Source: Oscillospiraceae bacterium
Lineage (GTDB): Bacteria > Bacillota > Clostridia > Oscillospirales > Ruminococcaceae
Assembly: GCA_016295145.1 (NCBI GenBank)
Contig: JAEDLR010000001.1
Coordinates: forward strand, 15,753-79,752
Direction: 5' to 3'
Length of the DNA stretch: 64,000 nt
The notes under the pieces: model-generated
What the model was told of the DNA's origin: nothing
Seen by the model: the letters and a program-made list of their open reading frames with translations, nothing else
The model's database searches: none
Program-made: the position numbers and the translations under genes
Shown: positions 2 through 15,957 of the stretch, piece after piece
Position numbering within the stretch: position 1 is the stretch's first letter
Layout of the letters: every line of letters begins with the position of its first letter

Positions 2-295
2 CAACTGGCACAGGTGCTTTCACCCCTGCCCTTTGACATTCCCGAGGATAAGCGTGTAGATGTGGCAATGGCCACCACGATGATCAACGACAGATTGGCA
101 AACGGCAGCTTTGATTTTGATCTGAGCACCGGCCGTACCGTATTTCGTCTGACCAGTGCATTTATGGGTTGTAACCTGAGCACTGAGGTGTACGACTACA
201 TGATCGGTGTTTCCGTTGCCACAGTGGATGAGTACAACGACAAGATTATGATGCTGTGCAAGGGTATGATCGAATTGAGTGCATTTGCTGAGTAA
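2..295 (+). CDS. C-terminal part of a small YbjN-like (sensory-transduction-regulator / secretion-chaperone-like fold) protein; 5' end lies outside the window
   Basis: The frame is open from the window edge (no stop before the listed Met at 14) to TAA at 293-295. Family guess rests by eye on the ...NGSFDFDLSTGRTVFRLTSAF... pattern. A terminator follows. Confidence 0.35.
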   Translation, partial: QLAQVLSPLPFDIPEDKRVDVAMATTMINDRLANGSFDFDLSTGRTVFRLTSAFMGCNLSTEVYDYMIGVSVATVDEYNDKIMMLCKGMIELSAFAE

Positions 296-318
296 TGACA
301 GCACAGTAAGGAATCGGA

Positions 319-351
319 AGCAGTCTGTTGTTTTGCGACAGGCTGCTTTTT
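319..351 (+). terminator. Rho-independent terminator-like hairpin after the YbjN-like gene
   Basis: AGCAGTCTGT (319-328) pairs with ACAGGCTGCT (338-347), with one G-U pair, followed by TTTTT (347-351). Confidence 0.6.
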
Positions 352-384
352 CCCTCGAATAACAAAAATAAGGAGAAAAATGCT

Positions 385-3300
385 ATGCCCAATGCGCTGC
401 AAGCGATCACTGCCGAGGAATATCAGGCGATTCTTACGGAGATCGCTGACAAAAACAATACCACCAAGCCCGAAATCTTTGAAAAGGTCGTGCTGCGGTT
501 TATCACATACTATGGCGAACAACTGAAAATTTCCGATGCCGTTGCGCAATATTATGCCGAGAAGGGCGGCGTCCTGATGCTGAAAGCATTTTGGGAGGCG
601 GGTAAGGATACCGTTGCTGCCGATGTGGATAGTCTGAATGCATGGATGGCGGACAAAGTGCAGGAGATGCTACAGACCCCCCCTGCTGATACCCCTTCCG
701 ACCGCCAGCAGGATCGCGTCAAGCAGACCGCTGCGGTGCTTGCCAAAACCAAGCTGCCTACCCTTGCAGAGGTAATGCAGCGGCAGGCAGCCGCATCGCC
801 CAAGCCAAAGGCTTCTACCAGTCAGGCACAGCTGGATGCGATTCTGGGCAGAAGCAAAGCAAAGCCGACAGAGGAGAATCCGCCCATTGACCCCACAACG
901 ATGCGCGGTGAACTGAAAACACTGGTAGAGCGCACCAATACCATGCGTGACACGCTGCTGCGCAATGTATTCGGGCAGGATCATGCCGTGAATCTGTTTG
1001 CGGAAGGCTATTTCCGCGCCGAGTTATTGGGCAGGGCAGATGCCAGCCGCCGCAAACCCAAGGCGACTTTTTTGTTTGCAGGCCCTCCCGGCGTGGGTAA
1101 AACATATCTGGCAGAGCAGGGTGCCGCGATTCTGGGGCTGCCTTTTCTGCGCATGGATATGAGCGAATATGCCGACAGCAGTGCTGCTGCGGAGTTTATC
1201 GGCTCAGATAATGTATACAAGGGTGCAAAATCGGGCAATGTGACCTCCTTCGTCAAGGAGAATCCCCAGTGCGTGATCCTGTTTGATGAGGTGGAAAAGG
1301 CAAATATCAGCATCATTCACCTGTTTTTGCAAATGTTGGATGCAGGTATCCTGCGAGACAGCAATACGGATGAGGAGATCTCTTTTAAGGATACCATTCT
1401 GATTTTCACCACCAATGCCGGCAGGCAGCTCTATGAAGCTTCCGAAACGGCAAATCTCTCCGGCATCAGCCGCAGAACGGTGCTGAATGCACTGCTCCAT
1501 GATGTGAATCCCCGTACGGGCTCGCCGTATTTTCCACCTGCCATTTGTTCGCGCTTTGCCACGGGCAATGTGGTCATGTTCAATCACATGGAAACCAACC
1601 ATCTGCTTTCCATTGTGAAAAAGGAGTTTGAACGGCAAAAGGAGATCATTGCCCAGGCATACGGCATTGAACTGCACGCCGCAGAGTCTGTTCTGACTGC
1701 ATTGCTGTTGGCAGAGGGCGGCAACGCCGATGCCCGTACGATGTCCAGCCGTTCGGCGGCTTTTTTGCAGCGTGAGCTATATGAACTGTTTCTGGTGCTT
1801 TGCTCTGAGGATGTGGAGTACGATCTGGATACCGTGGAGCGCATTACATTGGATGTGGTGACCGACGGGTGCAGTCCGGAGGTGCTTGCGCTGTTTGCAC
1901 CTACCGAGCCGGCAAAGATCCTGTTTTTGTCCCAGGAGCGCGCAGAGTATTTTATCACCGACAGTGCGCAGAGCAAACTGCTGCCCTGTACTACCGCCGA
2001 AGAAGCCATCGCCATGCTGGAACAGCAGGAGATCGCGTTTGTGGTGATTGACTGGAACAGCAAGGGCGATGCAAGAAGCGAGTATCTGCATATTGAAGAT
2101 GTGGATTCCCCGGCAAGGGTGCTGTTCCGGCATCTCCGGCAGTATATGCCCCATTTGCCGGTGTATGTGTTGGAGCATTGTGACTATCCGCTGCGCTACG
2201 ATGAGCGCGTGAGCCTGACAGAAAACGGGGTCCGCGAGATTCTGACAGTGGAAAAGGGCAGCAATGTGCTGCAGATTGCTGACATCGTCACCACGATGTA
2301 TCGCAATCAGCAGGTGATGAAGCTTGCCTCCGCAAGCCAGATTGTTGCCTTCGAAACTGCACAGAGTATGTCTGCTGACGGAAAAGAAGCCCATATCTCC
2401 CTGTTTGATTTTGCCGTGCGCCGTGCGGTGGATGCCGAGGATGTCAAACAGATTCTCAGCGATGTTTCCCGTCCCACGCAGCGTTTTGATGATGTGATTG
2501 GTGCCGAGGATGCCAAGGCAGAACTGCAATACTTTGTGGATTATCTCAAGAACCCTGTCAAGCTGAGCCGCATGGGCCTGCGTCAGCCGAGAGGCGTGCT
2601 GCTGTACGGCCCTCCCGGAACGGGTAAAACGCTGCTTGCGAAGGCGATGGCAGGCGAATCCGACGTGACTTTTATCAGCGCGGACGGCTCACAGTTCTTA
2701 AAGCGGTATGTGGGCGAAGGCCCCGAGGCTATGAAAAGCCTGTTTGCCAAGGCAAGAAAATATGCCCCGACCATTGTGTTCATCGATGAGATTGATTCCT
2801 TTGCCACTGACCGCGATGCAGGCAGAGAGCTAGCCGGCCGTGCCGAGATCCTCAATGCACTGCTGACGGAAATGGACGGCTTCCGCGAAAATACCGGCAA
2901 GCCCGTGTTTGTACTGGCAGCCACCAATGCCGCCATGGAGGGCGAAAACGGCCGTACCATTGACGGGGCACTGGCAAGACGCTTTGACCGTAAAATCTAT
3001 GTAGAACTCCCCGGGAAGCTTGAACGTATCCGCTTCTTGCAGCGAATGAATCAGGCGAATAACCCTCTGCGGCTTTCAGACGGCATGATTGATAACCTGG
3101 CGGTGCGCTCTACCGGTATGAGCCTTGCGGAGTTGGAGAACATCATTGAGCTTTCCTATCGCAATGCAGTGCGTGCAGGCAGCGACATCGTCAACGATGC
3201 GATCTTTGTGGAGGCATTTGAATCCTTCCAGAACGGTAAGGAGAAAAAGTGGAATGCCGATACCCGTTTGCGTGTGGCGCGCCATGAGGCAGGTCATGCT

Positions 3301-3810
3301 CTGTTGTGCTGGCACAGCGGCGAGATGCCTTCCTATCTTACCATTGTGGCAAGAGCCGATCACGGCGGCTATATGCAGCATGGCGATACCGAGGACAAGG
3401 GCATCTACACTGCAGAGGAGATGCGTGGCAGGATCCGTACCTCTCTGGGCGGCAGAGCTGCAGAACTGGTATACTACGGCGAAGATGGCAATTCCAGCGG
3501 CGCTTCCGGCGATTTGCAGAACGCCACCAACTGTGCGCGCAGAATGCTCTGCCGTTATGGTATGGATAACGATTTTGGTCTGGCAGTCATGGCCGGCGGT
3601 GAACTCAGTGGCGAGCAGAGCTTGCTTGTGCGCCAGCGGATCAATGCGCTGCTTGCAGATGAGTTGCAGCGCGCCAAGGAGATCATTGTGCAGGAGAAGA
3701 CCCGCTACGAGCAGCTTGTCAATGCGTTGCTGGAGCGTGATTATCTTACAGGCCCTGAGCTGGAAAAGGTTCTGGGCGAGGTGCCGAAGAAAGTGCCCGT
3801 TACCGTATAA
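385..3810 (+). CDS. Soluble tandem AAA+ / M41 metalloprotease fusion: N-terminal helical region, Clp/Hsp100 D2-like AAA+ module, receiver-like domain, FtsH-like AAA+ module, peptidase M41 domain
   Basis: ATG at 385 lies 9 nt after AGGAG (371-375). Module 1: VFGQDHAV, Walker A GPPGVGKT (nt 1081-1104), Walker B ILFDEVEKA, sensor FTTN; it aligns by eye to ClpB D2. Module 2: Walker A GPPGTGKT (nt 2608-2631), Walker B IVFIDEID, pore loop YVG, second region of homology (SRH) ATN...ALARRFDR. Protease: HEAGH (nt 3283-3297) plus GASGDL. No hydrophobic TM stretch is visible. Confidence 0.85.
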   Translation: MPNALQAITAEEYQAILTEIADKNNTTKPEIFEKVVLRFITYYGEQLKISDAVAQYYAEKGGVLMLKAFWEAGKDTVAADVDSLNAWMADKVQEMLQTPPADTPSDRQQDRVKQTAAVLAKTKLPTLAEVMQRQAAASPKPKASTSQAQLDAILGRSKAKPTEENPPIDPTTMRGELKTLVERTNTMRDTLLRNVFGQDHAVNLFAEGYFRAELLGRADASRRKPKATFLFAGPPGVGKTYLAEQGAAILGLPFLRMDMSEYADSSAAAEFIGSDNVYKGAKSGNVTSFVKENPQCVILFDEVEKANISIIHLFLQMLDAGILRDSNTDEEISFKDTILIFTTNAGRQLYEASETANLSGISRRTVLNALLHDVNPRTGSPYFPPAICSRFATGNVVMFNHMETNHLLSIVKKEFERQKEIIAQAYGIELHAAESVLTALLLAEGGNADARTMSSRSAAFLQRELYELFLVLCSEDVEYDLDTVERITLDVVTDGCSPEVLALFAPTEPAKILFLSQERAEYFITDSAQSKLLPCTTAEEAIAMLEQQEIAFVVIDWNSKGDARSEYLHIEDVDSPARVLFRHLRQYMPHLPVYVLEHCDYPLRYDERVSLTENGVREILTVEKGSNVLQIADIVTTMYRNQQVMKLASASQIVAFETAQSMSADGKEAHISLFDFAVRRAVDAEDVKQILSDVSRPTQRFDDVIGAEDAKAELQYFVDYLKNPVKLSRMGLRQPRGVLLYGPPGTGKTLLAKAMAGESDVTFISADGSQFLKRYVGEGPEAMKSLFAKARKYAPTIVFIDEIDSFATDRDAGRELAGRAEILNALLTEMDGFRENTGKPVFVLAATNAAMEGENGRTIDGALARRFDRKIYVELPGKLERIRFLQRMNQANNPLRLSDGMIDNLAVRSTGMSLAELENIIELSYRNAVRAGSDIVNDAIFVEAFESFQNGKEKKWNADTRLRVARHEAGHALLCWHSGEMPSYLTIVARADHGGYMQHGDTEDKGIYTAEEMRGRIRTSLGGRAAELVYYGEDGNSSGASGDLQNATNCARRMLCRYGMDNDFGLAVMAGGELSGEQSLLVRQRINALLADELQRAKEIIVQEKTRYEQLVNALLERDYLTGPELEKVLGEVPKKVPVTV

Positions 3811-3828
3811 TCCGATCATACAAAATAG

Positions 3829-3863
3829 ACAGAGCAGGCAAACATGGTTCCTGCTCTGTTTTG
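3829..3863 (+). terminator. Rho-independent terminator after the AAA+/M41 gene
   Basis: ACAGAGCAGG (3829-3838) pairs perfectly with CCTGCTCTGT (3850-3859), followed by TTTTG. Confidence 0.75.
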
Positions 3864-3909
3864 CTATGGATAGATGGGCGCAACAGCGAAAAAGCCAGTG
3901 CCGCGCCGC

Positions 3910-3938
3910 TTTACAGATTGGAAAAACTATGGTATAAT
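3910..3938 (+). promoter_or_regulatory. SigA-type promoter for the patatin-like gene
   Basis: TTTACA (3910-3915), 17-nt spacer, TATAAT (3933-3938). Confidence 0.5.
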
Positions 3939-3976
3939 AAAGCCGATCATGCTTGTTTGTGAAAGGAATGGGAATC

Positions 3977-4843
3977 ATGCAACAGAAAACAGGGCTTGTG
4001 TTAGAGGGCGGCGCCATGCGCGGAATGTACACCGCTGGGATTCTGGATGTGCTGATGGAGCATCATGTGGTATTGGATGGTGCCATTGGCGTATCGGCAG
4101 GTGCTGCCTTTGGCTGCAATTATAAATCCCGGCAAATCGGCAGAAGCATTCGCTACAATCTCAAATATTGCAAAAACAAGCACTATTGCAGCGTATATTC
4201 GCTGATTCGTACAGGTGATTTATACGGCGGGGAGTTCTGCTACCACAAGCTGCCCACAGAACTGGATTTGTTCGATGTGCCCACCTATACTGCCAACCCC
4301 ATGCCGTTTTATGTGGTGGCAACCGATGTGGAAAGCGGCAAGCCGGTGTATCATCGCGCAGACCGCGCCGACGATACCGATATGGAGTGGTTCCGTGCCT
4401 CTGCCTCGATGCCGTTGGTGTCCAATATCGTGCAGATTGGGGACAAGCATCTACTGGATGGCGGCATGAGTGACCCCATTCCGCTGGCGTATTTTCAATC
4501 ACTGGGCTATAGCCGCAATGTGGTGATTCTGACGCAGCCCCGTGGATACCGCAAAGCGGAAAACAAATCGTTGCCCCTGTTGCGGGTGATGCTGCGTAAG
4601 TATCCCAATGCCGTCAAGGTGATGGCAAACCGTCATCTGGTGTATAACCGCACCACACAATTTGTGCTGGATTCCGAACAGGCAGGGGATACCTTCGTAT
4701 TTGCACCCAAGGAGCCGTTGCCCATCAAACGCATATGCCGTGATCCGGAACTGCTGCAGCAAACCTACGATATCGGCAGAAAACAGGCACTGGAGCTGTT
4801 ACCCGATCTGTTGCGCTTCTTGGGGAAGGAAGAAAAAGCATAA
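3977..4843 (+). CDS. Patatin-like phospholipase
   Basis: Oxyanion motif GGAMRG, nucleophile elbow GVSAG and catalytic DGG (LLDGGMSD) are all present. Start moved to ATG 3977, 9 nt after AAGGA (3963-3967); the track start at 3953 is TTG. Confidence 0.85.
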   Translation: MQQKTGLVLEGGAMRGMYTAGILDVLMEHHVVLDGAIGVSAGAAFGCNYKSRQIGRSIRYNLKYCKNKHYCSVYSLIRTGDLYGGEFCYHKLPTELDLFDVPTYTANPMPFYVVATDVESGKPVYHRADRADDTDMEWFRASASMPLVSNIVQIGDKHLLDGGMSDPIPLAYFQSLGYSRNVVILTQPRGYRKAENKSLPLLRVMLRKYPNAVKVMANRHLVYNRTTQFVLDSEQAGDTFVFAPKEPLPIKRICRDPELLQQTYDIGRKQALELLPDLLRFLGKEEKA

Positions 4844-4897
4844 TCATGAGATGGAAAGAAAACAGGGGTGGCATTCGCCATGCCGAAAGGAGAATCT

Positions 4898-7687
4898 ATG
4901 TTACAGACATTACATCTGGCAGAGCGTTTTGCACTGCTATGTGACCCGATCCCCTGCAAGCATACCGCCCCCCCCGCGGATTATCCCGAAACCATGCTGC
5001 TGCCGGGTACTACCGCACAGCAACACATTGGTACGCCTAATTCTGCGCGGGAGACCGACTTTTTCACCGAGGTGTACCCCTTTGAGGGACAGATATGGCT
5101 GAAAAAGACCGTGACTGTTCCCGATGCGATGCTGGGCAAACGGCTGATATTGCAATTGGAACGCACCCGTATGACAAAGCTTTGGGTCAATGGGCAGTAT
5201 GCAGGAAGCTGCGACAGCCTCTGTACGCCCCATACCTATGATATCACAGCATTTGCCACAAGGCAGACCGAACTGGTCATCTGCGTAAAGAATACCGACT
5301 ACCCCACAAAGGGTGGACACATGACTTCTCCCGATACGCAGACCAACTGGATCGGGATTACGGGGGATATTACACTGACTGCCTATGCCGATCTGCGCCT
5401 GACCGCTTTGCGTGCTTACCCTGACGCTGCAACCAAATCAGTGCGGGTGACGGGTACGCTCTGCGGTGGATTGCAGACGGCGTGTGTCATACAGGCAGAA
5501 GCTTACGATCCATCAGGGCATACTGTGCCGCTTCCCATACTCTCGCGGCATACTATTTGTGCCGATCGGAAGGGGAATTTTTCGTTGTTGCTGCAAATCC
5601 CCGATGCGCCGCTGTGGAGCGAGTACTGCCCTGTGTGCATCCGTATGATACTGACTTTGCCTGAATCGGGGGATTGTGAGACCCTTTGCTTTGGTATGCG
5701 GAATTTTACAGCCTGCGGCGATCATTTTGAGATCAACGGCAATGCGGTGATGCTGCGCGGCAAACATGACGGCCTGGTGTTTCCGCTGACTGGCGCTGCC
5801 CCCACCGATGTGGATCAATGGATGCGTGTTTTTTCCATTGCCAAGGAATGGGGTATCAACCATTACAGATTCCACACCTGCTGCCCCCCTGAGGCTTGCT
5901 TTGTCGCTGCTGACCGCATGGGCATTTATTTGGAGCCGGAGCTGCCCTTTTGGGGCACGGTACACGCCCCCGATGACGAAAATTTTCAGAGAGAGGAGCA
6001 GGCGTATCTCATCCATGAGGGTCTGCGCATCGTCGATGCCTACGGCAATCATCCGTCGTTTTGTATGTTCTCGCTGGGCAACGAGCTTTGGGGCAGCCCG
6101 GAACGGTTGGCGGAGATCATCGCCATTCTCAAAAAGCATGACGATCGTCCGTTGTATACGCAGGGCAGCAATAATTTTCAGCATATGCCCCTGAAGGTGG
6201 AAAATGAGGATTTCTGGACGGGCGTGCGGTTGGGTTATGGCAAGTTGATCCGCGGTTCCTATGCGACTTGCGACGCGCCGATCGGATTGATACAGACCGC
6301 AGCACCCTCTACCGCATGGGATTATGAAACGTATCTTGCGCCCTATGGGACGGAAGATACCGCTTCTGACGGCACGGAAACCGAAATTGAGATCCAGTAT
6401 GGTACGGGGGTCAAAAAGGTGCGGGCCGTCAAAACAGAGGGCTTCTGCCCCGATGTGCCTGTGGTCACCCATGAGGTGGGGCAGTACGGCGTTTACCCCG
6501 ATTTTTCCGAGATTGACAAGTACACGGGCGTGGTGCAGCCACGCAATTTCGAGGTGTTCCGTGAGCGTCTGGCAGAGGCAGGGATGCTTTCACAGGCAGA
6601 GGAATTTTTCCGCTGTTCCGGTGCGCTTTCCCGGGCGTGCTACAAAATGGAGATTGAAGCCGCCATGCGTTCGCCGCATATTGCAGGGTTTCAACTACTG
6701 GATTTGCAGGATTTTCCCGGGCAGGGTACTGCGCTGGTAGGTATGCTGAATGCGCTGATGGAGAACAAGGGGCTGATCTCTCCCGAGGAATGGCGCGGTT
6801 TTTGCGGCGATATCGTACCCCTTGCAAAATTCAATTCGTTTGTGTGGGAAAGCGGTCAGCAAGTGCAGATTGGGATGGCGTTGCGCTGCTATCGCCCGAT
6901 GCCAAAGGCACAAACACTGCAAATGACCTTGCAGTGGGACGGGGAAACGCTTTGTGAAGCCGTTGCGGAGATCCCTGCGTTTTCCGTTGGCTATTGCGAT
7001 CTCGGCAGCGTGGAGTTTGCCGTCAAGCCGGATGTTGCGGGCAAGGTGGTGCTGAAGCTGGAAATTCCCGGCATAGGCGTTGCAAACAGCTATGATATCG
7101 TGGTTTTGCCGCCTGCCAAGCCCGTTACAGTGCCTGAGGGTGTATGCATCACCCACAGTATGGCAGAAGCAATGCCGTTGCTGCAACAGGGGAGATCTGT
7201 GGTGCTGCTGCCCGAAAGGCTCTCGCATAGCATACCGGGCTTTTATTGCACGGATTTCTGGTGTTATCATATGTTTCGCATCATTTCGGAATCTATGAAC
7301 AAGGAGGTGCCGGTGGGCACAATGGGGCTTTGCATGGACAGCGCACACCCGATCACAAGGGCATTGTACAGCGAGACTTATGCAACGCCGCAGTGGTATG
7401 CGCCCGTAACCCATGCCAATTGTGTGATTCTCGATCGGGCACCTGTGGGATATCGTCCCATTGTGCAAATGATTGATAATTTTGAGCGTAATCACCGACT
7501 GGGATTGATTTTTGAAGCAAAGGTTGCTGGGGGAAATTTATTGGTATCTGCGGTGCGCACAGAAGAATGTCCCGATGATCCTGCGATGCAGCTACTGGCG
7601 CAGGCATTGCTCAACTATGCCGCTTCGGATGCCTTTGCCCCTGCTTTCGAGTTGGATGCCGATATGTTGACCGAGGTTTTGTGCTGA
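4898..7687 (+). CDS. Glycoside hydrolase family 2-like enzyme (beta-galactosidase/beta-mannosidase-type TIM barrel), apparently cytoplasmic
   Basis: ATG 4898 follows AAGGAG (4886-4891). Has an N-terminal sugar-binding-like region, a barrel segment INHYRFHTCCPPE and acid/base-like LGNELWG. No signal peptide. Substrate not inferable. Confidence 0.7.
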   Translation: MLQTLHLAERFALLCDPIPCKHTAPPADYPETMLLPGTTAQQHIGTPNSARETDFFTEVYPFEGQIWLKKTVTVPDAMLGKRLILQLERTRMTKLWVNGQYAGSCDSLCTPHTYDITAFATRQTELVICVKNTDYPTKGGHMTSPDTQTNWIGITGDITLTAYADLRLTALRAYPDAATKSVRVTGTLCGGLQTACVIQAEAYDPSGHTVPLPILSRHTICADRKGNFSLLLQIPDAPLWSEYCPVCIRMILTLPESGDCETLCFGMRNFTACGDHFEINGNAVMLRGKHDGLVFPLTGAAPTDVDQWMRVFSIAKEWGINHYRFHTCCPPEACFVAADRMGIYLEPELPFWGTVHAPDDENFQREEQAYLIHEGLRIVDAYGNHPSFCMFSLGNELWGSPERLAEIIAILKKHDDRPLYTQGSNNFQHMPLKVENEDFWTGVRLGYGKLIRGSYATCDAPIGLIQTAAPSTAWDYETYLAPYGTEDTASDGTETEIEIQYGTGVKKVRAVKTEGFCPDVPVVTHEVGQYGVYPDFSEIDKYTGVVQPRNFEVFRERLAEAGMLSQAEEFFRCSGALSRACYKMEIEAAMRSPHIAGFQLLDLQDFPGQGTALVGMLNALMENKGLISPEEWRGFCGDIVPLAKFNSFVWESGQQVQIGMALRCYRPMPKAQTLQMTLQWDGETLCEAVAEIPAFSVGYCDLGSVEFAVKPDVAGKVVLKLEIPGIGVANSYDIVVLPPAKPVTVPEGVCITHSMAEAMPLLQQGRSVVLLPERLSHSIPGFYCTDFWCYHMFRIISESMNKEVPVGTMGLCMDSAHPITRALYSETYATPQWYAPVTHANCVILDRAPVGYRPIVQMIDNFERNHRLGLIFEAKVAGGNLLVSAVRTEECPDDPAMQLLAQALLNYAASDAFAPAFELDADMLTEVLC

Positions 7688-7723
7688 GATACGGTATTTA
7701 TGGAGACGCTATCCTTATATTCT

Positions 7724-7757
7724 TGCGCAAGGGGTATGACTCCTTGCGCATTTTGTT
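7724..7757 (+). terminator. Rho-independent terminator after the GH2 gene
   Basis: TGCGCAAGG (7724-7732) pairs with CCTTGCGCA (7742-7750), followed by TTTTGTT. Confidence 0.7.
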
Positions 7758-7892
7758 GAAGTATGGTAAAGTACATATCGCGTGATTGCAAAGCACCTAG
7801 GGCATTGCCTGAATTCTGACCAAAATCATGCGTTAGCGCAAGCTAACTGCTTGTGCAAACTTCCAAAATATCCCGTTTTGACCCGTTTCCCC

Positions 7893-7921
7893 TTGACAAA
7901 TCCCCTGAAAGGTTGTATCAT
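7893..7921 (+). promoter_or_regulatory. SigA-type promoter of feoAB
   Basis: TTGACA (7893-7898), 17-nt spacer, TATCAT (7916-7921). Confidence 0.55.
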
Positions 7922-7969
7922 ATAGTTCGACAAGGCTAACTTGGCAACTCACTGAAAGGAGACAACAGC

Positions 7970-8191
7970 GTGAAAACACTCAAAGATGCAAAAATCGGAT
8001 CAACAGTGCGCGTGGTAAAGCTGCACGGGGAAGGCGCACTGCGCCGCCGTATCATGGATATGGGCATTACCCGTCATACTGAGATTTACATACGTAAGGC
8101 TGCGCCGCTGGGTGACCCCATCGAAGTGCAGGTACGAGGCTATGAGCTTTCTCTGCGCAAGGCAGATGCAGAAATGGTAGAGGTGGAGTGA
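7970..8191 (+). CDS. feoA: Ferrous iron transport protein A
   Basis: 73-aa SH3-like FeoA sequence (VRVVKLHGEG...RRRIMDMGI...). GTG start lies 8 nt after AAGGAG. Sits directly upstream of feoB. Confidence 0.9.
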   Translation: MKTLKDAKIGSTVRVVKLHGEGALRRRIMDMGITRHTEIYIRKAAPLGDPIEVQVRGYELSLRKADAEMVEVE

Positions 8192-8259
8192 ATGCTCCCC
8201 CTTTGCTTTTTGGCAGGCAGTTAGCATAGAGTAATTCAAAGGCGAAAGGAGCAGGACAA

Positions 8260-10488
8260 ATGATGGACATACGAATTGCACTGGCGGGCAATCCCAATTG
8301 CGGAAAAACGACACTGTTTAATGCGCTGACGGGTTCGAACCAGTATGTGGGCAACTGGCCGGGTGTTACCGTGGAGAAAAAAGAGGGCAAACTCAAAAAG
8401 CAGGAGGGCGTGATTGTGACCGACCTGCCGGGTATCTACTCGCTTTCGCCCTATACGCCCGAGGAGATTGTTGCCCGCAGTTATTTGGTGGAGGAGCGGC
8501 CCGATGCGATTTTGAACATCGTGGACGGCACCAATCTGGAGCGCAATCTGTATCTTACCACGCAACTCATGGAGTTGGGGATTCCCGTGGTCATTGCCAT
8601 CAATATGATGGATGTGGTGCGCAGAAACGGCGATGAGATCGACATTGAAAAGCTTTCCAAAAGCATCGGCTGCAAGATCATTGAGATCTCCGCACTGAAG
8701 GGCGAGCATATTATGGAGGCGGCAGAAATCGCCATTGAAGCCGCAAAGGGCGGCACGACCGTACCGGGGCATATCTTTTCGGGCACGGTGGAACACGCAC
8801 TGGCGCATATCGAGGAAGCCGCGGTACATCATCTGCCGGAGGACAGACAGCGTTGGTATGCGGTAAAGCTGTTTGAGCGCGATGCCCGTGTGACGGAGAA
8901 ATTGCAACTGCCGGAAGCGACCCGAAAGCATATGGAATCGGATATTGCGGCGGTGGAGGCGGAACTGGACGATGATGCCGAAAGCATCATCACCAATGAG
9001 CGATACCTGTTCATTGACCGCCTGATGCAGCGTTGCTACAAGAAAAAGAACGCCGGTAAGCTTTCCATTTCCGACCGAATCGACCGCGTGGCGACAAACC
9101 GTTTCCTGGCACTGCCGATTTTTGCCCTGGTAATGTGGCTGGTCTATACGCTTTCCATTGGTACGGTGGGGGATTGGACAGTGGGCTTTATGAATGACGG
9201 CCTGTTTGGTTCCTTTGCCGACAATTACGGCGATACCTTTATGGCAAACTGGATCAGCATACCCGAATTGTTTGATCGGCTGCTGCTGAACGCTGCCGGA
9301 GAACCCGTGATCGCGCCATGGCTGTACAGCCTGATCCAGGAAGGAATTATTGGCGGCGTGGGCGCAGTGCTTGGCTTTGTGCCGCAGATGATGATCCTGT
9401 TTTTGCTGCTTTCTATGTTGGAGGACTGCGGCTATATGTCCCGTGTGGCGTTTATCATGGACAGGATCTTCCGCAAATTCGGTCTTTCCGGCAAGAGTTT
9501 TATTCCGCTGCTGGTGGCAACGGGCTGCGGCGTGCCTGGCATCATGGCAAGCCGTACCATTGAGCAGGAACGCGACCGCAGAATGACTGTTATGACCACG
9601 GCGTTCATTCCCTGCGGTGCCAAAATGCCCATTGTCGGCATGATTGCCGGTGCGCTGTTTGCCGATACCTGGCTGGGCGGTGCATGGGTGGCGACGGCAG
9701 CATACTTTGTGGGTATGGCGGCAGTGGTCATTTCGGGTCTGATCCTCAAGAAAACCAAGGCGTTTGCCGGTGATCCTGCCCCCTTTGTCATGGAGCTGCC
9801 TGCATATCATATGCCCGTGGCAAGCAATGTGCTGCGTGCCACATGGGAACGTGGCTGGGATTTCATCAAGCGCGCAGGTACTGTAATTCTGGTTGCAAGT
9901 GTTGCCATCTGGGTGCTCAACAGCTTTAGCTTTACGGGCGGTTTGCATTATATCGCCGAGGGGGAGAGCGACTCGATTCTGAATATCGTCGGCAGTGCGC
10001 TGGCATGGGTATTTAAGCCTCTGGGCTTTGGCACATGGCAGATGGCAGTTGCCACGGTGCTGGGTCTGATGGCAAAAGAGGAAGTCGTTGGCGTATTCGG
10101 TGCCTTGTCCTCTATGGCAAACAGCGGCATCGCGGATATCCTCGAAAGCGGTAGTTCGGAGCAGATGGCGTTCATCGGGCAGGAGTTTTTCAGCGGCAGT
10201 CGGCTTGCCGGCTTTTCGTTCATGGTATTTAATCTGCTGTGTGCGCCCTGCTTTGCTGCAATGGGTGCCATCCGGCGGGAAATGAACAGCCCCAAGTGGA
10301 CATGGGCGGCGCTGGGCTGGATGACGGGTTTTGCCTATGCGACCTCGCTGGTCATCTATCAACTGGGCAGATTCTTCACAGGCGGCGGATTCAGCTTCTG
10401 GACGGCGGCTGCATGGATTCTGCTTGCGGTACTGATTTACCTCGTTGTGCGCAAAAATCCCTATCAGGGCGGCAAGCTAAGAAAATAA
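8260..10488 (+). CDS. feoB: Ferrous iron transporter B (N-terminal GTPase plus polytopic membrane domain)
   Basis: G1 motif GNPNCGKTTLFNALTG, G-domain motifs, then a long hydrophobic permease region. SD AAGGAG lies upstream. Confidence 0.95.
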   Translation: MMDIRIALAGNPNCGKTTLFNALTGSNQYVGNWPGVTVEKKEGKLKKQEGVIVTDLPGIYSLSPYTPEEIVARSYLVEERPDAILNIVDGTNLERNLYLTTQLMELGIPVVIAINMMDVVRRNGDEIDIEKLSKSIGCKIIEISALKGEHIMEAAEIAIEAAKGGTTVPGHIFSGTVEHALAHIEEAAVHHLPEDRQRWYAVKLFERDARVTEKLQLPEATRKHMESDIAAVEAELDDDAESIITNERYLFIDRLMQRCYKKKNAGKLSISDRIDRVATNRFLALPIFALVMWLVYTLSIGTVGDWTVGFMNDGLFGSFADNYGDTFMANWISIPELFDRLLLNAAGEPVIAPWLYSLIQEGIIGGVGAVLGFVPQMMILFLLLSMLEDCGYMSRVAFIMDRIFRKFGLSGKSFIPLLVATGCGVPGIMASRTIEQERDRRMTVMTTAFIPCGAKMPIVGMIAGALFADTWLGGAWVATAAYFVGMAAVVISGLILKKTKAFAGDPAPFVMELPAYHMPVASNVLRATWERGWDFIKRAGTVILVASVAIWVLNSFSFTGGLHYIAEGESDSILNIVGSALAWVFKPLGFGTWQMAVATVLGLMAKEEVVGVFGALSSMANSGIADILESGSSEQMAFIGQEFFSGSRLAGFSFMVFNLLCAPCFAAMGAIRREMNSPKWTWAALGWMTGFAYATSLVIYQLGRFFTGGGFSFWTAAAWILLAVLIYLVVRKNPYQGGKLRK

Positions 10489-10501
10489 CGGAGGTGGCAC
10501 G

Positions 10502-10681
10502 ATGAACTGGCAATCGTGGCTTACACTGGCGATTCTGGCTGCAATACTGACGGCAATTATCGTCCGATGGATCTACAACAAACGAAACGGAAAATCTTCC
10601 TGCGGGTGCGGTGGCAACTGCGGAGCCTGTGGCATGGGCTGCCACAGACATCATGCAGAATCCGCTGCGGATAAGGAATGA
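10502..10681 (+). CDS. FeoB-associated Cys-rich small membrane protein (59 aa; below the ORF-track cutoff)
   Basis: My translation: MNWQSWLTLAILAAILTAIIVRWIYNKRNGKSSCGCGGNCGACGMGCHRHHAESAADKE. One TM helix plus a CxCxxxCxxCxxxC tail. ATG follows GGAGG and lies 13 nt after the feoB stop. Confidence 0.7.
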   Translation: MNWQSWLTLAILAAILTAIIVRWIYNKRNGKSSCGCGGNCGACGMGCHRHHAESAADKE

Positions 10682-10693
10682 TAGGATACAACC

Positions 10694-10735
10694 AAAGCGC
10701 TCAGCTTATGACATCAGCTGAGCGCTTTCTTTGTT
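10694..10735 (+). terminator. Terminator of the feo operon
   Basis: AAAGCGCTCAGCT (10694-10706) pairs with AGCTGAGCGCTTT (10716-10728), followed by CTTTGTT. Confidence 0.7.
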
Positions 10736-10767
10736 ATGTCCACGCAGTGTCGGCTGCGGCCAAGGGT

Positions 10768-10807
10768 CAGACATACAACAGACCGCCCCGAAAGATTCGG
10801 AGCAGTC
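10768..10807 (-). terminator. Probable terminator of ftsH
   Basis: On the minus strand, GACTGCTCCGAA-TCT-TTCGGGGCGGTC forms a 12-bp stem with two G-U pairs, followed by TGTTGTATGT. Confidence 0.5.
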
Positions 10808-10826
10808 TCTTGCATTGCATTTCTGA

Positions 10827-12767
10827 TTACTCGGCAGTCGGCTCTGCTTCGGGGATATCATTTGCAGATGCATCCTCGGTGGGCTGTGCAGGTGCAGGGT
10901 TCTCCTTTGCCTTCCGGGAAGCAACCGTCAGTTCGCCTTTCATGATCTGCGTGAATTCGTCCTCGTTTGCCTTTTCGTATTCAATCAGGTATTCGGCAAG
11001 TGCATCCAACTGGTCACGGTGTGCCTTCAGGATATCTTTTGCCTGGGCGTAGCCGTTTTCTACCAGTTTGCGCACCTCGGCATCAATGCGTGCCGCCACA
11101 TCTTCGGAGTAATCGCGCACATGACCGTAATCTCTGCCAATGAACACCTCGTTGTTATCGGAGCCATATACCACAAGGCCCAGTTCATCGGAAAAGCCCC
11201 ATTTGGTGACCATATTTTTGGCAATCTGGGTTGCGCGCTCCATATCGTTGGAAGCGCCCGTACAGACATCATCCAACACCAGGGCCTCTGCTGCACGGCC
11301 GCCCAGCAGCATCACAATGCTTTCAGCGAGCTTGCGGCGCGTCATGTGATCGTCCTCTGCATCGGGGCGCGTCCATGTCATACCCGCCGCCATACCGCGC
11401 GGAATCACGCTGACCTGCTGCACGGTATCCTGCGTTTCCAGATGATATGCCGTTACGGCATGACCTGCCTCGTGGTAGGCAGTGATCTTCTTATCACGCA
11501 TGGTAATTTTATGCGATTTCTTCTCCGGGCCTGCAATGACCTTCATAGTGGCTTCCTCAATATCCGCGTGGGTGATCGCCTTGCGGTTCGCTCTTGCGGC
11601 GAGAATTGCAGCCTCATTCAGCAGATTCTCAAGATCTGCACCGGTAAAGCCTTGTGTATCTCTTGCGATTTCGCGCAGATCCACATCGGGGCCAATGGGC
11701 TTTTTGCCCTTGTGTACCTTGAGAATCTCCTCTCTGCCCTTGACATCGGGGTAGTTGACGGTGATCTGGCGATCAAAACGGCCGGGACGCAACAGTGCAG
11801 GGTCGAGAATATCGCGGCGGTTGGTGGCGGCAATCACAATGACGCTCTCGTTGCCGGTAAAGCCGTCCATTTCGACCAGTAACTGGTTGAGGGTCTGTTC
11901 GCGCTCATCGTGGCCGCCGCCAAGCCCCGAACCTCTGTGGCGTCCTACGGCGTCGATCTCATCAATGAATATGATAGAGGGCGCGTGCTTCTTTGCCTGT
12001 TCAAACAGATCGCGCACACGGCTTGCACCTACACCCACGAACATTTCCACAAAATCGGAGCCGGAAATGGGGAAGAACGGCACACCGGCTTCACCTGCAA
12101 CAGCTCTTGCCAGCAGCGTTTTACCCGTACCGGGGGGGCCAAGGAGCAGCACACCTTTGGGGATTCTTGCACCGATTTCATCGTACTTTTTGGGGTTCTT
12201 TAAGAAGTCCACGATTTCCGCCATCTCAGCTTTTTCCTCGTCGGCACCCGCCACATCGGCGAAGGTAGCCTTTTTGGCTTGCCCGGTCTGCGCCTTGATG
12301 GTTGCCTTGCCGAAGGAATTGATCTTGCCGCCGCCGTTTGCCTGACGGAACATGAATATGAACAGCGCGATGCCCAGTACCAGCATCAAAATGGTAGGCA
12401 GTACGGTCAGCAGCCAGGAATTATCTTTAATTTCAAAGTAATCCTGCTTCAGCGGTGCATCGGGGTAGCGCTCGTTGTACTCTGTGCGGTAGTTGAGGGT
12501 TTCGTCCACAAACAGTGCAACATAGGGTACATCGTAGGTATAGGTTTTGTCCTCGCCGCGTAGCTGGTACTTCAGCTCGCCGGTGCCGAGATCAAGCGTA
12601 TAGCCTATGACCTCGTAGTTGTCAAAATGGGAGATGACCTCCGAGTAAGTGGTTTTGTTCTTACTCTCGGAGAGGGCTGGCAGCACGAACATAATGGCAG
12701 CGATGAACAGAATCGCAATCACTACATAGGCGAGAATGCCACGGTTTTTTCCTTGCAATGGTTTCAC
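10827..12767 (-). CDS. ftsH: Canonical membrane-anchored ATP-dependent zinc metalloprotease FtsH
   Basis: Two N-terminal TM segments, Walker [12 protein letters not shown], Walker B IIFIDEID, pore loop FVG, HEAGH. The GTG at 12767 directly abuts the SD AAGGAG, so the TTG at 12758 (8-nt spacing) may be the true start. Confidence 0.95.
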
Positions 12768-12770
12768 TCC

Positions 12771-14117
12771 TTACTGAATTTCTGTCGGGTTTGCAGCTGT
12801 GCATTGCAGCAACAGCAGCCGTTTGCTTGTAGTCCTGGGCGCAACGTCTGCTGCGACGCCGACGCCCTCGCAGAATATGCAGCCTGTATCATCATACAGT
12901 GCATAGATACTCTGCCGCAGGGGAAGGGGTACCTTTGCCTGCACAGTTTTGCGCAGTGCTTCCGACTGCTTGCGCCCCGGCAGTGTGATGCGGTCATCTC
13001 TTTGCCGCAGACGAAAGCATGGTTTACCAGTTATTTTATCATAATCGAGCGCATATTGGGTGAATGATTTGTGAATCTTCGGTGATAACGTAACATTTTC
13101 AAGGCTTGCAAAGCAGATACGCTCTGCAAATTGCCGGTTTTCGCCAAGGGTCAGGGGCAGCACATCGCATAAGGGCTTGGTATCGCGCATTACAAACAGC
13201 ATTCCCCGATGTACTTGCGCGTAAACATCACCGCTTACGGTGATTTTACCCATATTCTCTCGCACAAGCCTGTCAATGGCGCAAAGCAGTGTGTAAGAGG
13301 GGTCGATCCGGTAGCGCGCCAGCAGCATACGGTAGCAACGTATGCGCAAAGGTTTGGGCTGTTCTGCCATATACTGCAAACCGCCCCACTGTGTGTGAAA
13401 ACTCTGCGCAAAGACTTGTTTTGCCTGCCCCGTGAGATACGTTTCATCCTCGCGTAGGGTTTGCGCCGTATGCGTGAGATGAGTGACCAGTGCCGGCTGA
13501 TATTCGCGCAGCATGGGCAGGATGCGGTGCCGCAGATGGTTTCGCGTGGCGTCTTCGGTGAGATTGCTGCTGTCGGTGACGAAATCCTGCCCCTGCCTTT
13601 GCAAATATGCCAACAGCGCGGCTTTGGAAACGCCAAGCAGCGGACGAATAATCCTGCCGCGTTTTGGGGGAATCCCGCACAAACCGTTTAAGCCGCATCC
13701 GCGCAGCAGATAAAACAGCATCGTTTCCGCTTCGTCATCGGCGTGATGTGCCGTAGCAATCAAACCCGCGGGGGCAAGCTGCTGCAGTGCTTCATAGCGC
13801 AGGATGCGTGCGGCGGTTTCGGTGGAAAGCTTTTGCGCCGCTGCAAATGCAGGAACATCCACATAGCGGCAGCGAAACGGGATCTGCCGTTTTTGACACA
13901 ACGCCTCACAGAACGCTGCGTCACGGTCAGCTTCCTCACCGCGTATACCGTGGTGGATATGTACCGCCTGCAAATCGTAACCGAATTGCGGCTGCAGCTC
14001 CACCAGCAGAAGCAACAGCGCAACACTGTCTGCACCGCCGGAAAGTGCCACAGTCAGCTTGCCCTCATGGGGCAAAAGACCGCTTTGCACCACAGCCTCC
14101 GTCAGATGACTGCTCAT
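12771..14117 (-). CDS. tilS: tRNA(Ile)-lysidine synthetase
   Basis: PP-loop motif ALSGGADS near the N-terminus. Length and position upstream of ftsH are typical. The ATG overlaps the dnaB stop (ATGA). Confidence 0.9.
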   Translation of the reverse strand: MSSHLTEAVVQSGLLPHEGKLTVALSGGADSVALLLLLVELQPQFGYDLQAVHIHHGIRGEEADRDAAFCEALCQKRQIPFRCRYVDVPAFAAAQKLSTETAARILRYEALQQLAPAGLIATAHHADDEAETMLFYLLRGCGLNGLCGIPPKRGRIIRPLLGVSKAALLAYLQRQGQDFVTDSSNLTEDATRNHLRHRILPMLREYQPALVTHLTHTAQTLREDETYLTGQAKQVFAQSFHTQWGGLQYMAEQPKPLRIRCYRMLLARYRIDPSYTLLCAIDRLVRENMGKITVSGDVYAQVHRGMLFVMRDTKPLCDVLPLTLGENRQFAERICFASLENVTLSPKIHKSFTQYALDYDKITGKPCFRLRQRDDRITLPGRKQSEALRKTVQAKVPLPLRQSIYALYDDTGCIFCEGVGVAADVAPRTTSKRLLLLQCTAANPTEIQ

Positions 14118-15505
14118 GCCGGGGGCACGGCGTCATCCCGTGCGGGCGCAGAAAAGCGCGTGTACTGTGCATCCCAGATGAGATTGACCGTTGCGGTTTC
14201 GCCGTGACGGTTTTTCTGCACAATGCACTCGGTGATATTGGGCTTTTCGGTATCACGGTTGTAGTAGTAGTCGTTGTAAAGGAACATGACGATATCGGCG
14301 TCCTGCTCAATGGAGCCGGATTCACGCAGATCGGAGAGCATGGGACGCTTATCGGGTCGGCTTTCCACGCCACGGTTTAACTGGGAAAGCAGCAGTACGG
14401 GTACATTCAGCTCCTTTGCCATCAGTTTTAAGCCTCTGGTAATTTCGGAGATGACGAGTACACGGTTATCGCTTTTGGTGGGAGAATCCATCAACTGCAA
14501 GTAGTCAATGACCACCATGCCGAGATTTTTCACTCTGCGAAGCTGTGCCTTCATCTGCGAGACGGTAATGCCCGTCGCTTCCGAGAGCAGAATGTTCATG
14601 CCGGAAAGCATATCGGCACTTTCTGCGATTCTGCCCCATTCTTTTGGGTCAAGCCTGCCGGTGCGCAGCTTGTGGGAATCGACCAGTGCAGCGGTGGAAA
14701 GCATACGCGAGGCAAGCTGTTCCATGCTCATTTCCAGAGAATAAATGGCAACGGTCTTGCCGGAACTGCGGCTGACGTTTGTGGCAAGATTCAGTGCAAA
14801 GGAGGTTTTACCCATACCGGGTCGGGCAGCCAGCAGCACCAGATCGGAGTTGTTCATGCCGCCTGTGATGTGGTCCAGTTCGGGGTATCCGGTGCGTGCA
14901 CCCACAAACTGGTCACGGTCGGGTCCGGAAATATCCACCAGATGGCGATAGGTAGAAACCATCACATCGCCGATGGGCACCAGTCCGCGCACATCACGTC
15001 CCTGGCGGATATCGAAAATGCGCTGTTCGGCAGAATCCAGCAATGTTTGTGTTGATTCAACGCCCTCCGCGATTTGGTTCAGGATATCACGGGCAACGGC
15101 AGCCAGCATTCGTTCGCTGTGTTTTTCGGCAACGATTTTGGAGTAGCTGCGGATATTATCGGGTGAGGGAACCGTATCAGCCAGTGCGGTCAGATAGCGT
15201 TTGCCCTCGGCGGCATTTTCAAAGATGCCCAGCCGCAGTGCTTCATTGAGCACCACCACGGGGTCCATGTTTTCCGCCTGTGCGCCTGTGAACATCGAAA
15301 CCAGCAGACTGAACAGTTCACGGTGCTGCTGCAGCGAGAACGCGTCCGCCTTGATATATTCCAGTGCGGTGCTGATGGTTTCAGGGGAAAGCAGAATGGA
15401 GCCCAGTACCGATTGCTCCGCCTCAATATTGGCAGGATCGTTGCGCACGGTGCCTTCGGAAGCCAAACCGCCTGCGCCGTAGGAAGAACCGTCATGCTCA
15501 GGCAT
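14114..15505 (-). CDS. dnaB: Replicative DNA helicase
   Basis: N-terminal [12 protein letters not shown], Walker [14 protein letters not shown] and a RecA-like C-terminal domain. Follows rplI as in other Firmicutes. Confidence 0.95.
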
Positions 15506-15950
15506 TATCAGCCACCACGGATACGGTAAATTCGGCAGTTACGCCGTTAAACAGCTTTGCTTCGGCAGCGTAGGTGCCTTCGTTTTTGATCTCTACGGCG
15601 GTGGCGATCTTGCGCTTATCCACAGCAAAGCCGAACTGTGCTTCCACCGCTTCAGAGATGCTTGCGGGGGTAACGGCACCAAACAGTTTGCCGCCCTGAC
15701 CTGCTCTTGCGTGTACGGTCACGGTTTGCCCTTTGAGTTTTGCCGCCTGTGCTTCGGCTTCTGCCTTTGCGACATCAATTTTGTGCTGTGCGGAATCCTT
15801 TCTGCCCTGCAATTCGGTCAGATTCTTGGGGGTTGCTTCCAACGCAAGCCCCTTGCCGATGAGAAAGTTTCTGGCATAGCCATCAGAAACATTCTTCACA
15901 TCACCTTTTTTGCCTGTACCTTTTACATCCTGCAATAAGATTACTTTCAT
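15498..15950 (-). CDS. rplI: 50S ribosomal protein L9
   Basis: [30 protein letters not shown] is the canonical L9 N-terminus. Confidence 0.95.
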
Positions 15951-15957
15951 AGTTTTC

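Follow-up and report, generated by a model that had tools for sequence, protein, structure and literature searches.

A soluble protein joining a Clp-type and an FtsH-type AAA+ module to an M41 peptidase in Oscillospiraceae, a probable ATP-dependent protease of a new cytosolic type

The locus and its gene product

The stretch of DNA analysed here, referred to throughout as the window, covers 64,000 nucleotides of a gut bacterium of the Oscillospiraceae (GenBank assembly GCA_016295145.1, contig JAEDLR010000001.1, positions 15,753 to 79,752 of the forward strand), and near its beginning lies a gene for a protein of 1141 amino acids in which two ATPase modules, a receiver-like domain and a zinc peptidase of the family M41 follow one another in a single chain. 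The protein probably represents an ATP-dependent protease of a new kind that works in the cytosol. The gene had been singled out by a model that read the letters without database searches (hereafter the sequence-only reading) and that described its product as a soluble chimera of two AAA+ lineages with an M41 protease, encoded by a stand-alone module. The features of the locus, of the protein and of the neighbourhoods of its relatives are gathered in Table 1, where positions are counted from the first letter of the window.

Table 1 Features of the protease locus, of the rest of the window and of related loci (coordinates preceded by an L-number refer to loci outside the window)
Feature	Position	Strand	Basis or remark
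YbjN-family gene, 3' part (97 codons), cut by the window edge	2-295	+	match of the fragment to Pfam YbjN, E 0.0011
Terminator-like hairpin followed by U5	310-353	+	minimum free energy -25 kcal/mol, z -4.6, 0/200 shuffles as stable
Ribosome-binding site AGGAG; start codon ATG	371-375; 385-387	+	read from sequence; length and N-terminus match homologues
Whole protease gene	385-3810	+	1141-aa soluble AAA_2/receiver-like/AAA/M41 protein, no internal stops
Subclade-specific helical N-domain, residues 1-100	385-684	+	AlphaFold2 helices 10-97, pLDDT 67-87; no Pfam family above noise
Disordered Ala/Lys/Pro/Gln-rich linker, residues ~101-168	685-888	+	pLDDT <50 over 102-167; unalignable, length-variable
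D1: Clp/Hsp100 D2-type AAA+ module with small helical subdomain, residues 186-470	940-1794	+	Pfam AAA_2, NCBIfam, ClpE/ClpA alignment
Receiver-like (flavodoxin-fold) pseudo-receiver, residues 507-624	1903-2256	+	AlphaFold2, Foldseek, hhalign
Family-specific connector before D2: long helix 632-649 and conserved beta-hairpin 652-680 (FETAQ...LFDF)	2278-2424	+	AlphaFold2 secondary structure
D2: classical-clade AAA module, residues 696-950	2470-3234	+	Pfam AAA, E 1.9e-49; FtsH_fam 693-1125; 35% identity to the FtsH of the window
Peptidase M41 domain, residues 959-1129	3259-3771	+	HEAGH 3283-3297; third zinc ligand D1043 at 3511-3513
Terminator-like hairpin 3' of the stop codon	3827-3861	+	minimum free energy -18.1 kcal/mol, z -3.1
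Patatin-like phospholipase gene	3910-4843	+	Patatin/DUF6363 by Pfam, as matched in the relative with the 99%-identical protease
GH2-like protein, 939 aa	4868-7687		
FeoB	8260-10488		
Canonical FtsH	10827-12767	-	
TilS	12771-14117	-	read by eye only
DnaB	14114-15505	-	read by eye only
Ribosomal protein L9	15498-15950	-	read by eye only
GdpP-like protein	15958-17955	-	read by eye only
Small RyR genes	L083:7699-7998, L087:9507-9788, L093:10073-10354, L100:9236-9526, L132:2557-2853, L134:10934-11248		Pfam RyR, E 6.8e-33 for L087
TM-TrkA_N-RyR genes	L100:7150-9222, L097:4610-6403, L091:4621-6510 and 10061-11422, L083:12126-14462, L095:4037-5812, L134:8605-10911		

Domain architecture and catalytic residues

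The presence of two AAA+ modules of different lineages and of an M41 peptidase in one chain, as claimed in the sequence-only reading, is agreed upon by Pfam, NCBIfam and residue alignments. Pfam recognises AAA_2 at residues 224-355 (E 1.6e-35), AAA at 738-874 (E 1.9e-49) and Peptidase_M41 at 959-1129 (E 5.8e-30), the last (PF01434) scoring 105 bits against a threshold of 29.9 and covering positions 6-191 of the 191 of its profile. Concerning NCBIfam, the ClpA, ClpB and ClpV models match by their D2 part only (residues 181-441) and the FtsH models by their cytoplasmic part (693-1125); none of the curated family models reaches its cutoff, all scores being far below those set for equivalogs. In what follows, the first ATPase module of the 1141-residue protein is called D1 and the second one D2. 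The motifs quoted in the sequence-only reading were located at their places, i.e. GPPGVGKT (233), VILFDE (297) and TTN (342-344) in D1, GPPGTGKT (742), YVG (775), IVFIDE (797) and RRFDR (865-869) in D2, HEAGH (967) and GASGDL with D1043 in the peptidase, and, between the two ATPases, D556 with its codon at 2050-2052.

The conservation of these residues was followed in an alignment of 30 homologues that share 45-86% identity. In D1, the invariant positions are K239 of the Walker A motif, D301 and E302 of Walker B, the pore residue Y278, N344 (sensor-1), the arginine finger R390 and the triplet D449-A450-R451 with R451 as sensor-2. The alignment to the D2 modules of ClpE and ClpA puts Y278 on the tyrosine of GYVG, TTNAG on the sensor-1 segment and the SR390F segment on the NRxD arginine finger; sensor-1, R390 and R451, the latter in a DAR triplet that we take to correspond to the GAR-type sensor-2, were presumed from this alignment together with what is known of ClpB. 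In D2, the set of invariant residues covers K748 (Walker A), D801/E802 (Walker B), Y775 (pore), the DGF segment 831-833, N848 (sensor-1) and R866/R869 of the second region of homology (SRH), and in the peptidase it comprises H967, E968, H971 and D1043. Over the C-terminal 456 residues, identity to the host FtsH amounts to 35%, with HEAGH and GASxD (GASND in FtsH) aligned. The catalytic residues are thus intact on proper alignment, all those checked being invariant across the homologues, and since every Walker, pore-loop, sensor, arginine-finger and zinc residue persists down to 45% identity, both ATPases and the protease appear to be under selection as active enzymes.

No membrane anchor was seen in the protein: the highest Kyte-Doolittle mean over 19 residues is 1.23 and, as no segment is more hydrophobic than that, the protein is soluble, as had been supposed. 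The canonical FtsH encoded in the same window reaches 3.15 (residues 11-29) and 2.75 (residues 122-140) over 19 residues, these being its two transmembrane (TM) helices.

The receiver-like domain and the connector

The region between D1 and D2 had been read as resembling a CheY-like receiver without the N-terminal acidic pair, and the fold was recovered by structure prediction, structure comparison and profile alignment alike. AlphaFold2 (AF2), supplied with 23 homologues, models residues 468-702 confidently, with a predicted local distance difference test score (pLDDT) of 84 and a predicted template-modelling score (pTM) of 0.74. The top Foldseek matches of this model in the PDB are the receiver domains of LuxO, PhoP, RssB, CheY, PmrA and FleR (E ~1e-4 to 1e-3, template-modelling score by target 0.6-0.68), and hhalign, run against five classical receivers, returns a probability of 87% and an E-value of 4e-6, placing D556 (in VVIDWN) on D57 of CheY. 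This aspartate is kept in at least 90% of the 30 homologues, two of which have histidine instead.

The remaining hallmarks of a receiver are missing. The end of strand beta-1 (LFLSQE / VLVFAS) carries no acidic pair, the position of Thr87 is taken by Glu or Gln (residue 597) and that of Lys109 is variable. Neither Pfam, including Response_reg (PF00072), at E up to 10, nor a PDB sequence search gave any match for residues 400-717. The domain is thus a pseudo-receiver that keeps the phospho-acceptor aspartate only, and classical phosphorylation is unlikely. From the designation "regulatory receiver", the fold and the position of the aspartate stand, but the threonine, the lysine, the acidic pair and the PF00072 match do not, and the domain is probably a regulatory or structural insert and not a phosphorylated switch. 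It should be pointed out here that a 13-residue insert after strand beta-3 (residues 569-582, HIEDVDSPAR, window positions 2089-2130) contains the invariant residues E571, D572 and R578; coming directly after D556, it could form a metal- or ligand-binding site in place of the missing acidic pair.

The connector that follows carries six positions invariant in the homologues—Q660, G666, A669, I671, F674 and D675—all in its hairpin, for which no detectable relative and no PDB sequence match was obtained. As far as a PAN-like OB collar at residues 632-680 is concerned, NCBIfam models of PAN begin matching at residues 629-636. The AF2 model has a helix and a two-stranded hairpin here but lacks an OB barrel, and sequence matches in the PDB set in from ~679, in a pre-AAA linker of the Cdc48/VAT type; neither lends support to the collar.

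The N-terminal region and the spread of the family

In agreement with the sequence-only reading, the N-terminus matches no known family, Pfam finding no domain in residues 1-200; a DMP19 match to residues 3-58 (E 0.0047) is below the cutoff and was taken as noise. The first hundred residues are presumed to be a specificity or adaptor-binding module. Most relatives carry a different N-domain, in which two repeats can be recognised by eye (TAERFLVAVID... and LTAxxLLxCIxxDPS). Homology between this majority N-domain and that of the subclade studied here was rejected (hhalign probability 0.4%), and its assignment to Clp_N is unproven, as Pfam gives no match and the profile retrieves the N-domain of ClpA from the PDB only at E ~1.1.

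The search with the whole protein yielded more than 120 full-length clusters (at 90% identity), which are ~50% identical to it. The named relatives come from metagenome-assembled genomes (MAGs) of Oscillospiraceae, Ruminococcaceae, Clostridia or Eubacterium and are annotated only as "AAA family ATPase"; on the whole, the family is encountered chiefly in gut Clostridia. A profile of the middle domain, compared with 1.84 billion representatives, detected 349 clusters at 50% identity, 264 of them with E-values of 1e-10 or below; almost every one of the 349 has 1100-1250 residues, the middle domain at ~440-740 and the same layout. The recurrence of the architecture in both sets of clusters argues against its being a product of chance or misassembly. 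A 90%-identity cluster of 1617 members, which was recovered from contigs of human-gut metagenomes, goes in some sources by the name "cell division protease FtsH". No match to the middle domain was found in 50,697 phage and 72,556 plasmid records.

Some relatives are considerably longer (1.3-2.1 thousand residues; P0234, P0245, P0164, P0262 and P0013), the N-domain being replaced in them by a Ser/Thr kinase with TPR, by a DarT1-associated NADAR domain or by a third AAA module. One of 1721 residues (L089:5341-10506) adjoins genes for a kinase, a HEAT-repeat protein and HSP70 as well as IS66 elements, which looks like the context of a conflict system. The family thus consists of a constant core—D1, the receiver-like domain, the hairpin, D2 and M41—and a swappable N-terminal module.

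Metagenome contigs were scanned with a six-sequence alignment of the middle domain. A scan of genome contigs with the alignment of D1 plus the middle domain ran on the patterns LFDE[IV]EKA and [FM]DMSEY; ClpB and ClpA contain these too, so that 79 of its 80 loci were ordinary Clp genes. The one locus that looks like a relative, a distant one from a Roseburia sp. MAG (L003:1-3696), shows 32% identity over residues 2-519, i.e. D1 and the middle domain, and scores 606 bits to the whole query, so that the family may extend into Lachnospiraceae.

Start codon, flanking signals and neighbouring genes

The start at ATG 385 is preferred over TTG 328, from which a longer reading frame is mechanically open, because AGGAG lies at a normal distance from the former and close homologues have 1141 residues and begin with MPNAL or MSNAL. 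The terminator hairpins that had been noticed on both sides of the gene are real by folding; a simple terminator scan with a loop limit of 8 nt had missed both (loops of 9 and 11 nt, read by hand). The upstream one ends ~20 nt before the ribosome-binding site of the protease gene and is probably an attenuator between this gene and the YbjN-like gene. The idea of a stand-alone module built on these hairpins has nevertheless to be abandoned: no promoter-like site was found between the stop of the YbjN-like gene at 295 and the ATG (296-384), the L001 contig, which encodes a 99%-identical protein, has a strong near-consensus promoter-like site (TTGACA-17-TACAAT with extended TG) 5' of its YbjN-like gene but none in front of its protease gene, and same-strand neighbours recur in the family. 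The protease gene is here probably read through from the upstream YbjN gene.

The neighbourhoods were compared for 25 independent lineages, whose neighbouring open reading frames were clustered and searched with hidden Markov models (HMMs). In at least 16 of them the protease gene is accompanied, invariably on its own strand, by one or more of three partner genes, which encode a YbjN-like protein, a small RyR protein and a TM-TrkA_N-RyR protein. The YbjN-like genes adjoin it in 10 lineages, usually as tandem pairs with products of ~157 residues; the full gene of L001 (9438-9908, 157 residues) scores 33.5 bits with Pfam YbjN against a cutoff of 22, and 141 bits with the family HMM. The fold reported for the YbjN family is that of type III secretion chaperones of class I (PMC5398634).

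RyR or TM-RyR genes stand beside the protease gene in 11 lineages. The small single-domain RyR proteins of 93-104 residues adjoin it in six lineages, in three of them at a distance of 3-51 nt. The TM-TrkA_N-RyR protein, 450-780 residues long with 2-3 N-terminal TM helices, is encoded directly beside it in eight; the spacing ranges from overlap to +40 nt, often 16-40 nt, or is -18/-80 nt when the gene lies upstream. Its TrkA_N and C-terminal RyR matches are weak, below the Pfam thresholds, and it may be a membrane partner or a substrate of the protease. No match of the partner genes to PADLOC or NCBIfam models was obtained. In the prevalent human-gut lineage L131 (protease gene 7001-10471), to which the cluster of 1617 sequences belongs, YbjN or RyR genes are replaced by a gene for a 931-residue TIR_2-NPHP3_N(STAND)-TPR protein (3371-6166) and three small open reading frames, one of them DUF5640, directly upstream on the same strand.

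Downstream of the protease gene in the window, the patatin-like gene has a near-consensus promoter-like site of its own (TTTACA-17-TATAAT with TG, 3910-3938) and is not conserved beside other members of the family. The protease locus is set among housekeeping genes, namely a purine operon, FeoAB and FtsH-TilS-DnaB. The part of the window from 4868 to 17955 looks like ordinary chromosome.

Proposed mechanism and alternative explanations

Based on the above results, it appears rather likely that the product of the gene is an ATP-dependent zinc protease of the cytosol, self-compartmentalising and of an architecture not described before, with stacked rings and with YbjN as its likely adaptor. A stacked-ring unfoldase-protease is the best reading of the protein, its hexameric stacking and processive proteolysis being suggested by analogy with the Clp/Hsp100 and FtsH hexamers. 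Six chains would assemble into three stacked rings, consisting of the Clp-D2-type D1, the classical AAA module D2 and M41. Substrates would be held by the pore tyrosines Y278 and Y775, unfolded, threaded through both rings and cut at the zinc site formed by HEAGH and Asp1043, with the variable N-domain on its disordered tether selecting substrates or adaptors. The co-encoded YbjN-like protein would be the likeliest adaptor or substrate-presenting partner, by analogy with the delivery of effectors by chaperones to the type III ATPase, and the pseudo-receiver with the hairpin at the D1/D2 junction could couple or gate the rings.

Several points weigh against this interpretation. The AF2 model of the full monomer is of moderate confidence only (pLDDT 73, pTM 0.40), for which reason the stacking of the rings is put forward as a suggestion. 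The insert of ~230 residues between D1 and D2, which has no precedent in stacked-ring unfoldases, could block coaxial stacking. The assignments of the third zinc ligand and of the arginine fingers depend on alignment combined with what is known of FtsH and ClpB. Concerning the partners, all three are missing from at least four lineages whose flanks are adequate, among them the most prevalent human-gut one, and at the present locus there is a single YbjN-like gene, with a strong hairpin between it and the protease gene.

The protein could alternatively act at the membrane in trans, as a soluble enzyme recruited by the TM-TrkA_N-RyR protein, by the small RyR proteins or by both, with the partner replacing the anchor and the protease exerting quality control, or turning over that membrane protein, in the manner of FtsH. 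Such recruitment would fit the close linkage of both kinds of genes described above and is plausible for lineages having a TM-RyR partner, but neither the window nor the 99%-identical relative has such a gene nearby, what follows downstream being a patatin-like lipase and a glycosidase, and the RyR and TrkA_N matches of the candidate membrane partner are below the Pfam thresholds; as a general explanation, recruitment in trans is unlikely. Still less is to be said for an effector or regulator of a conflict system, of the anti-phage or toxin-antitoxin-like kind, in which proteolysis is triggered by a fused or neighbouring sensor. The long variants with kinase and TPR or with NADAR, the surroundings of the 1721-residue relative, the TIR-STAND-TPR gene directly upstream in the prevalent human-gut lineage and the partial PADLOC matches to IetA, DolB and PDC-M37B all point in that direction. 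However, those matches concern generic AAA cores and do not extend to the partner genes, the middle domain is absent from the phage and plasmid records searched, the locus lies among housekeeping genes, and the 30 homologues (45-86% identity), to which the comparison was confined, show no variation at the catalytic and structural positions. We regard this account as improbable.

It is hardly credible that the protein is chiefly an unfoldase or disaggregase engaged in ClpB-like remodelling, with a protease domain that is structural or serves for trimming only. D1 is, admittedly, closest to the D2 modules of ClpA, ClpB, ClpE and Hsp104, disaggregases among them, but the invariance of HEAGH, D1043 and many further M41 positions over the homologues is unexpected for a decayed active site, and neither the M-domain nor the first nucleotide-binding domain (NBD) of ClpB is present.

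Returning to the stacked-ring protease, a wider proposal can be made more tentatively, as a possibility that we hold short of probable: the family may represent a distinct, unrecognised class of bacterial AAA+ proteases, in which a Clp-type ring sits on an FtsH-type ring with an M41 chamber, is gated by the embedded pseudo-receiver and is served by RyR partners and by dedicated YbjN adaptors resembling type III chaperones, so that gut Clostridia would have a way of degrading proteins in the cytosol whose mechanism differs from those of Lon, ClpXP/ClpCP, HslUV and the membrane FtsH. Bacterial energy-dependent proteolysis is usually listed as ClpXP/ClpAP/ClpCP, HslUV, Lon, FtsH and the Mpa-proteasome, and a widespread soluble enzyme fusing the rings of two AAA+ clades to M41 would, if confirmed, extend that closed list; it would also offer a natural experiment in the coupling of heterologous rings and in the role of a receiver-fold domain embedded in an unfoldase. 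As the family is present in human-gut metagenomes, its substrates could matter for the physiology of gut commensals. We know of no established molecular function of YbjN-like and RyR-domain proteins in bacteria, and their linkage to the protease gene provides a concrete testable hypothesis for their roles.

Comparison with known systems

The literature search revealed no description of the AAA_2/receiver-like/AAA/M41 architecture, and matches in the PDB cover separate ATPase or FtsH-like parts only, with no solved structure of the whole; the novelty assumed in the sequence-only reading thus holds as far as curated families, structures and papers are concerned. The nearest systems found, although with a different protein, are the MoxR-vWA ternary conflict systems (Kaur et al. 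2020, PMC7159879), which occur in multicellular delta-proteobacteria, actinobacteria and planctomycetes and contain a soluble tandem AAA+ protein with both modules of the FtsH type, the N-terminal one being inactive. The 1141-residue protein likewise has two AAA+ modules, one of them FtsH-type, but the MoxR and vWA partners are not encoded here. Membership among IetA and the other defence ATPases of PADLOC was also considered and rejected: the partial matches to IetA, DolB and PDC-M37B cover the generic AAA core of D2 only (residues 669-954), PADLOC recognises nothing among the neighbours, where IetA would call for its partner protease IetS, and the phage and plasmid records yielded no copies.

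With receiver domains, including that of the ClpXP adaptor RssB, the middle domain shares the fold and the aspartate at the position of CheY D57; it differs from them in the missing acidic pair, Thr87 and Lys109, in the acidic insert after strand beta-3 and in being embedded between ATPases instead of N-terminal.

The classical AAA module fused to M41 (residues 693-1130) is shared with FtsH (TIGR01241), the Walker A and B motifs, the aromatic pore loop, the SRH arginines, HEAGH and GASxD being aligned, and given these aligned motifs the protein probably degrades threaded polypeptides in an FtsH-like manner. Unlike FtsH, it has no N-terminal TM helices and no periplasmic domain, and its FtsH-like part is preceded by a Clp-type ATPase and the receiver-like domain; the scores with the FtsH equivalogs are low, 343.6 bits against a cutoff of 600 (TIGR01241) and 209.6 against 1008 (NF008004). 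Its pore loop KYVGEG, as opposed to MFVGVG of FtsH, is one that we take to be Rpt/Cdc48-like.

Residues 186-470 and the D2 module of the class I Clp/Hsp100 proteins ClpA, ClpC, ClpE and ClpB can be aligned from one end to the other. In contrast to these, the 1141-residue protein has no D1-type NBD, no M-domain and no detectable Clp_N, and no ClpP-docking loop was seen in it; it scores 171 bits against 993 with the ClpA equivalog and 128 against 1232 with that of ClpB, and proteolysis would be carried out in cis by M41, not by ClpP. The concept of a pair of stacked ATPase rings on top of a chamber for proteolysis would be common to it, to Cdc48/VAT-20S and to ClpAP/ClpCP, and the linker and AAA core of D2 are highly similar to the D2 of VAT/p97. 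In those systems, however, either the two rings are of a single lineage (Cdc48) or a protein of its own supplies the protease, whereas here two AAA+ clades and the protease are united in one polypeptide.

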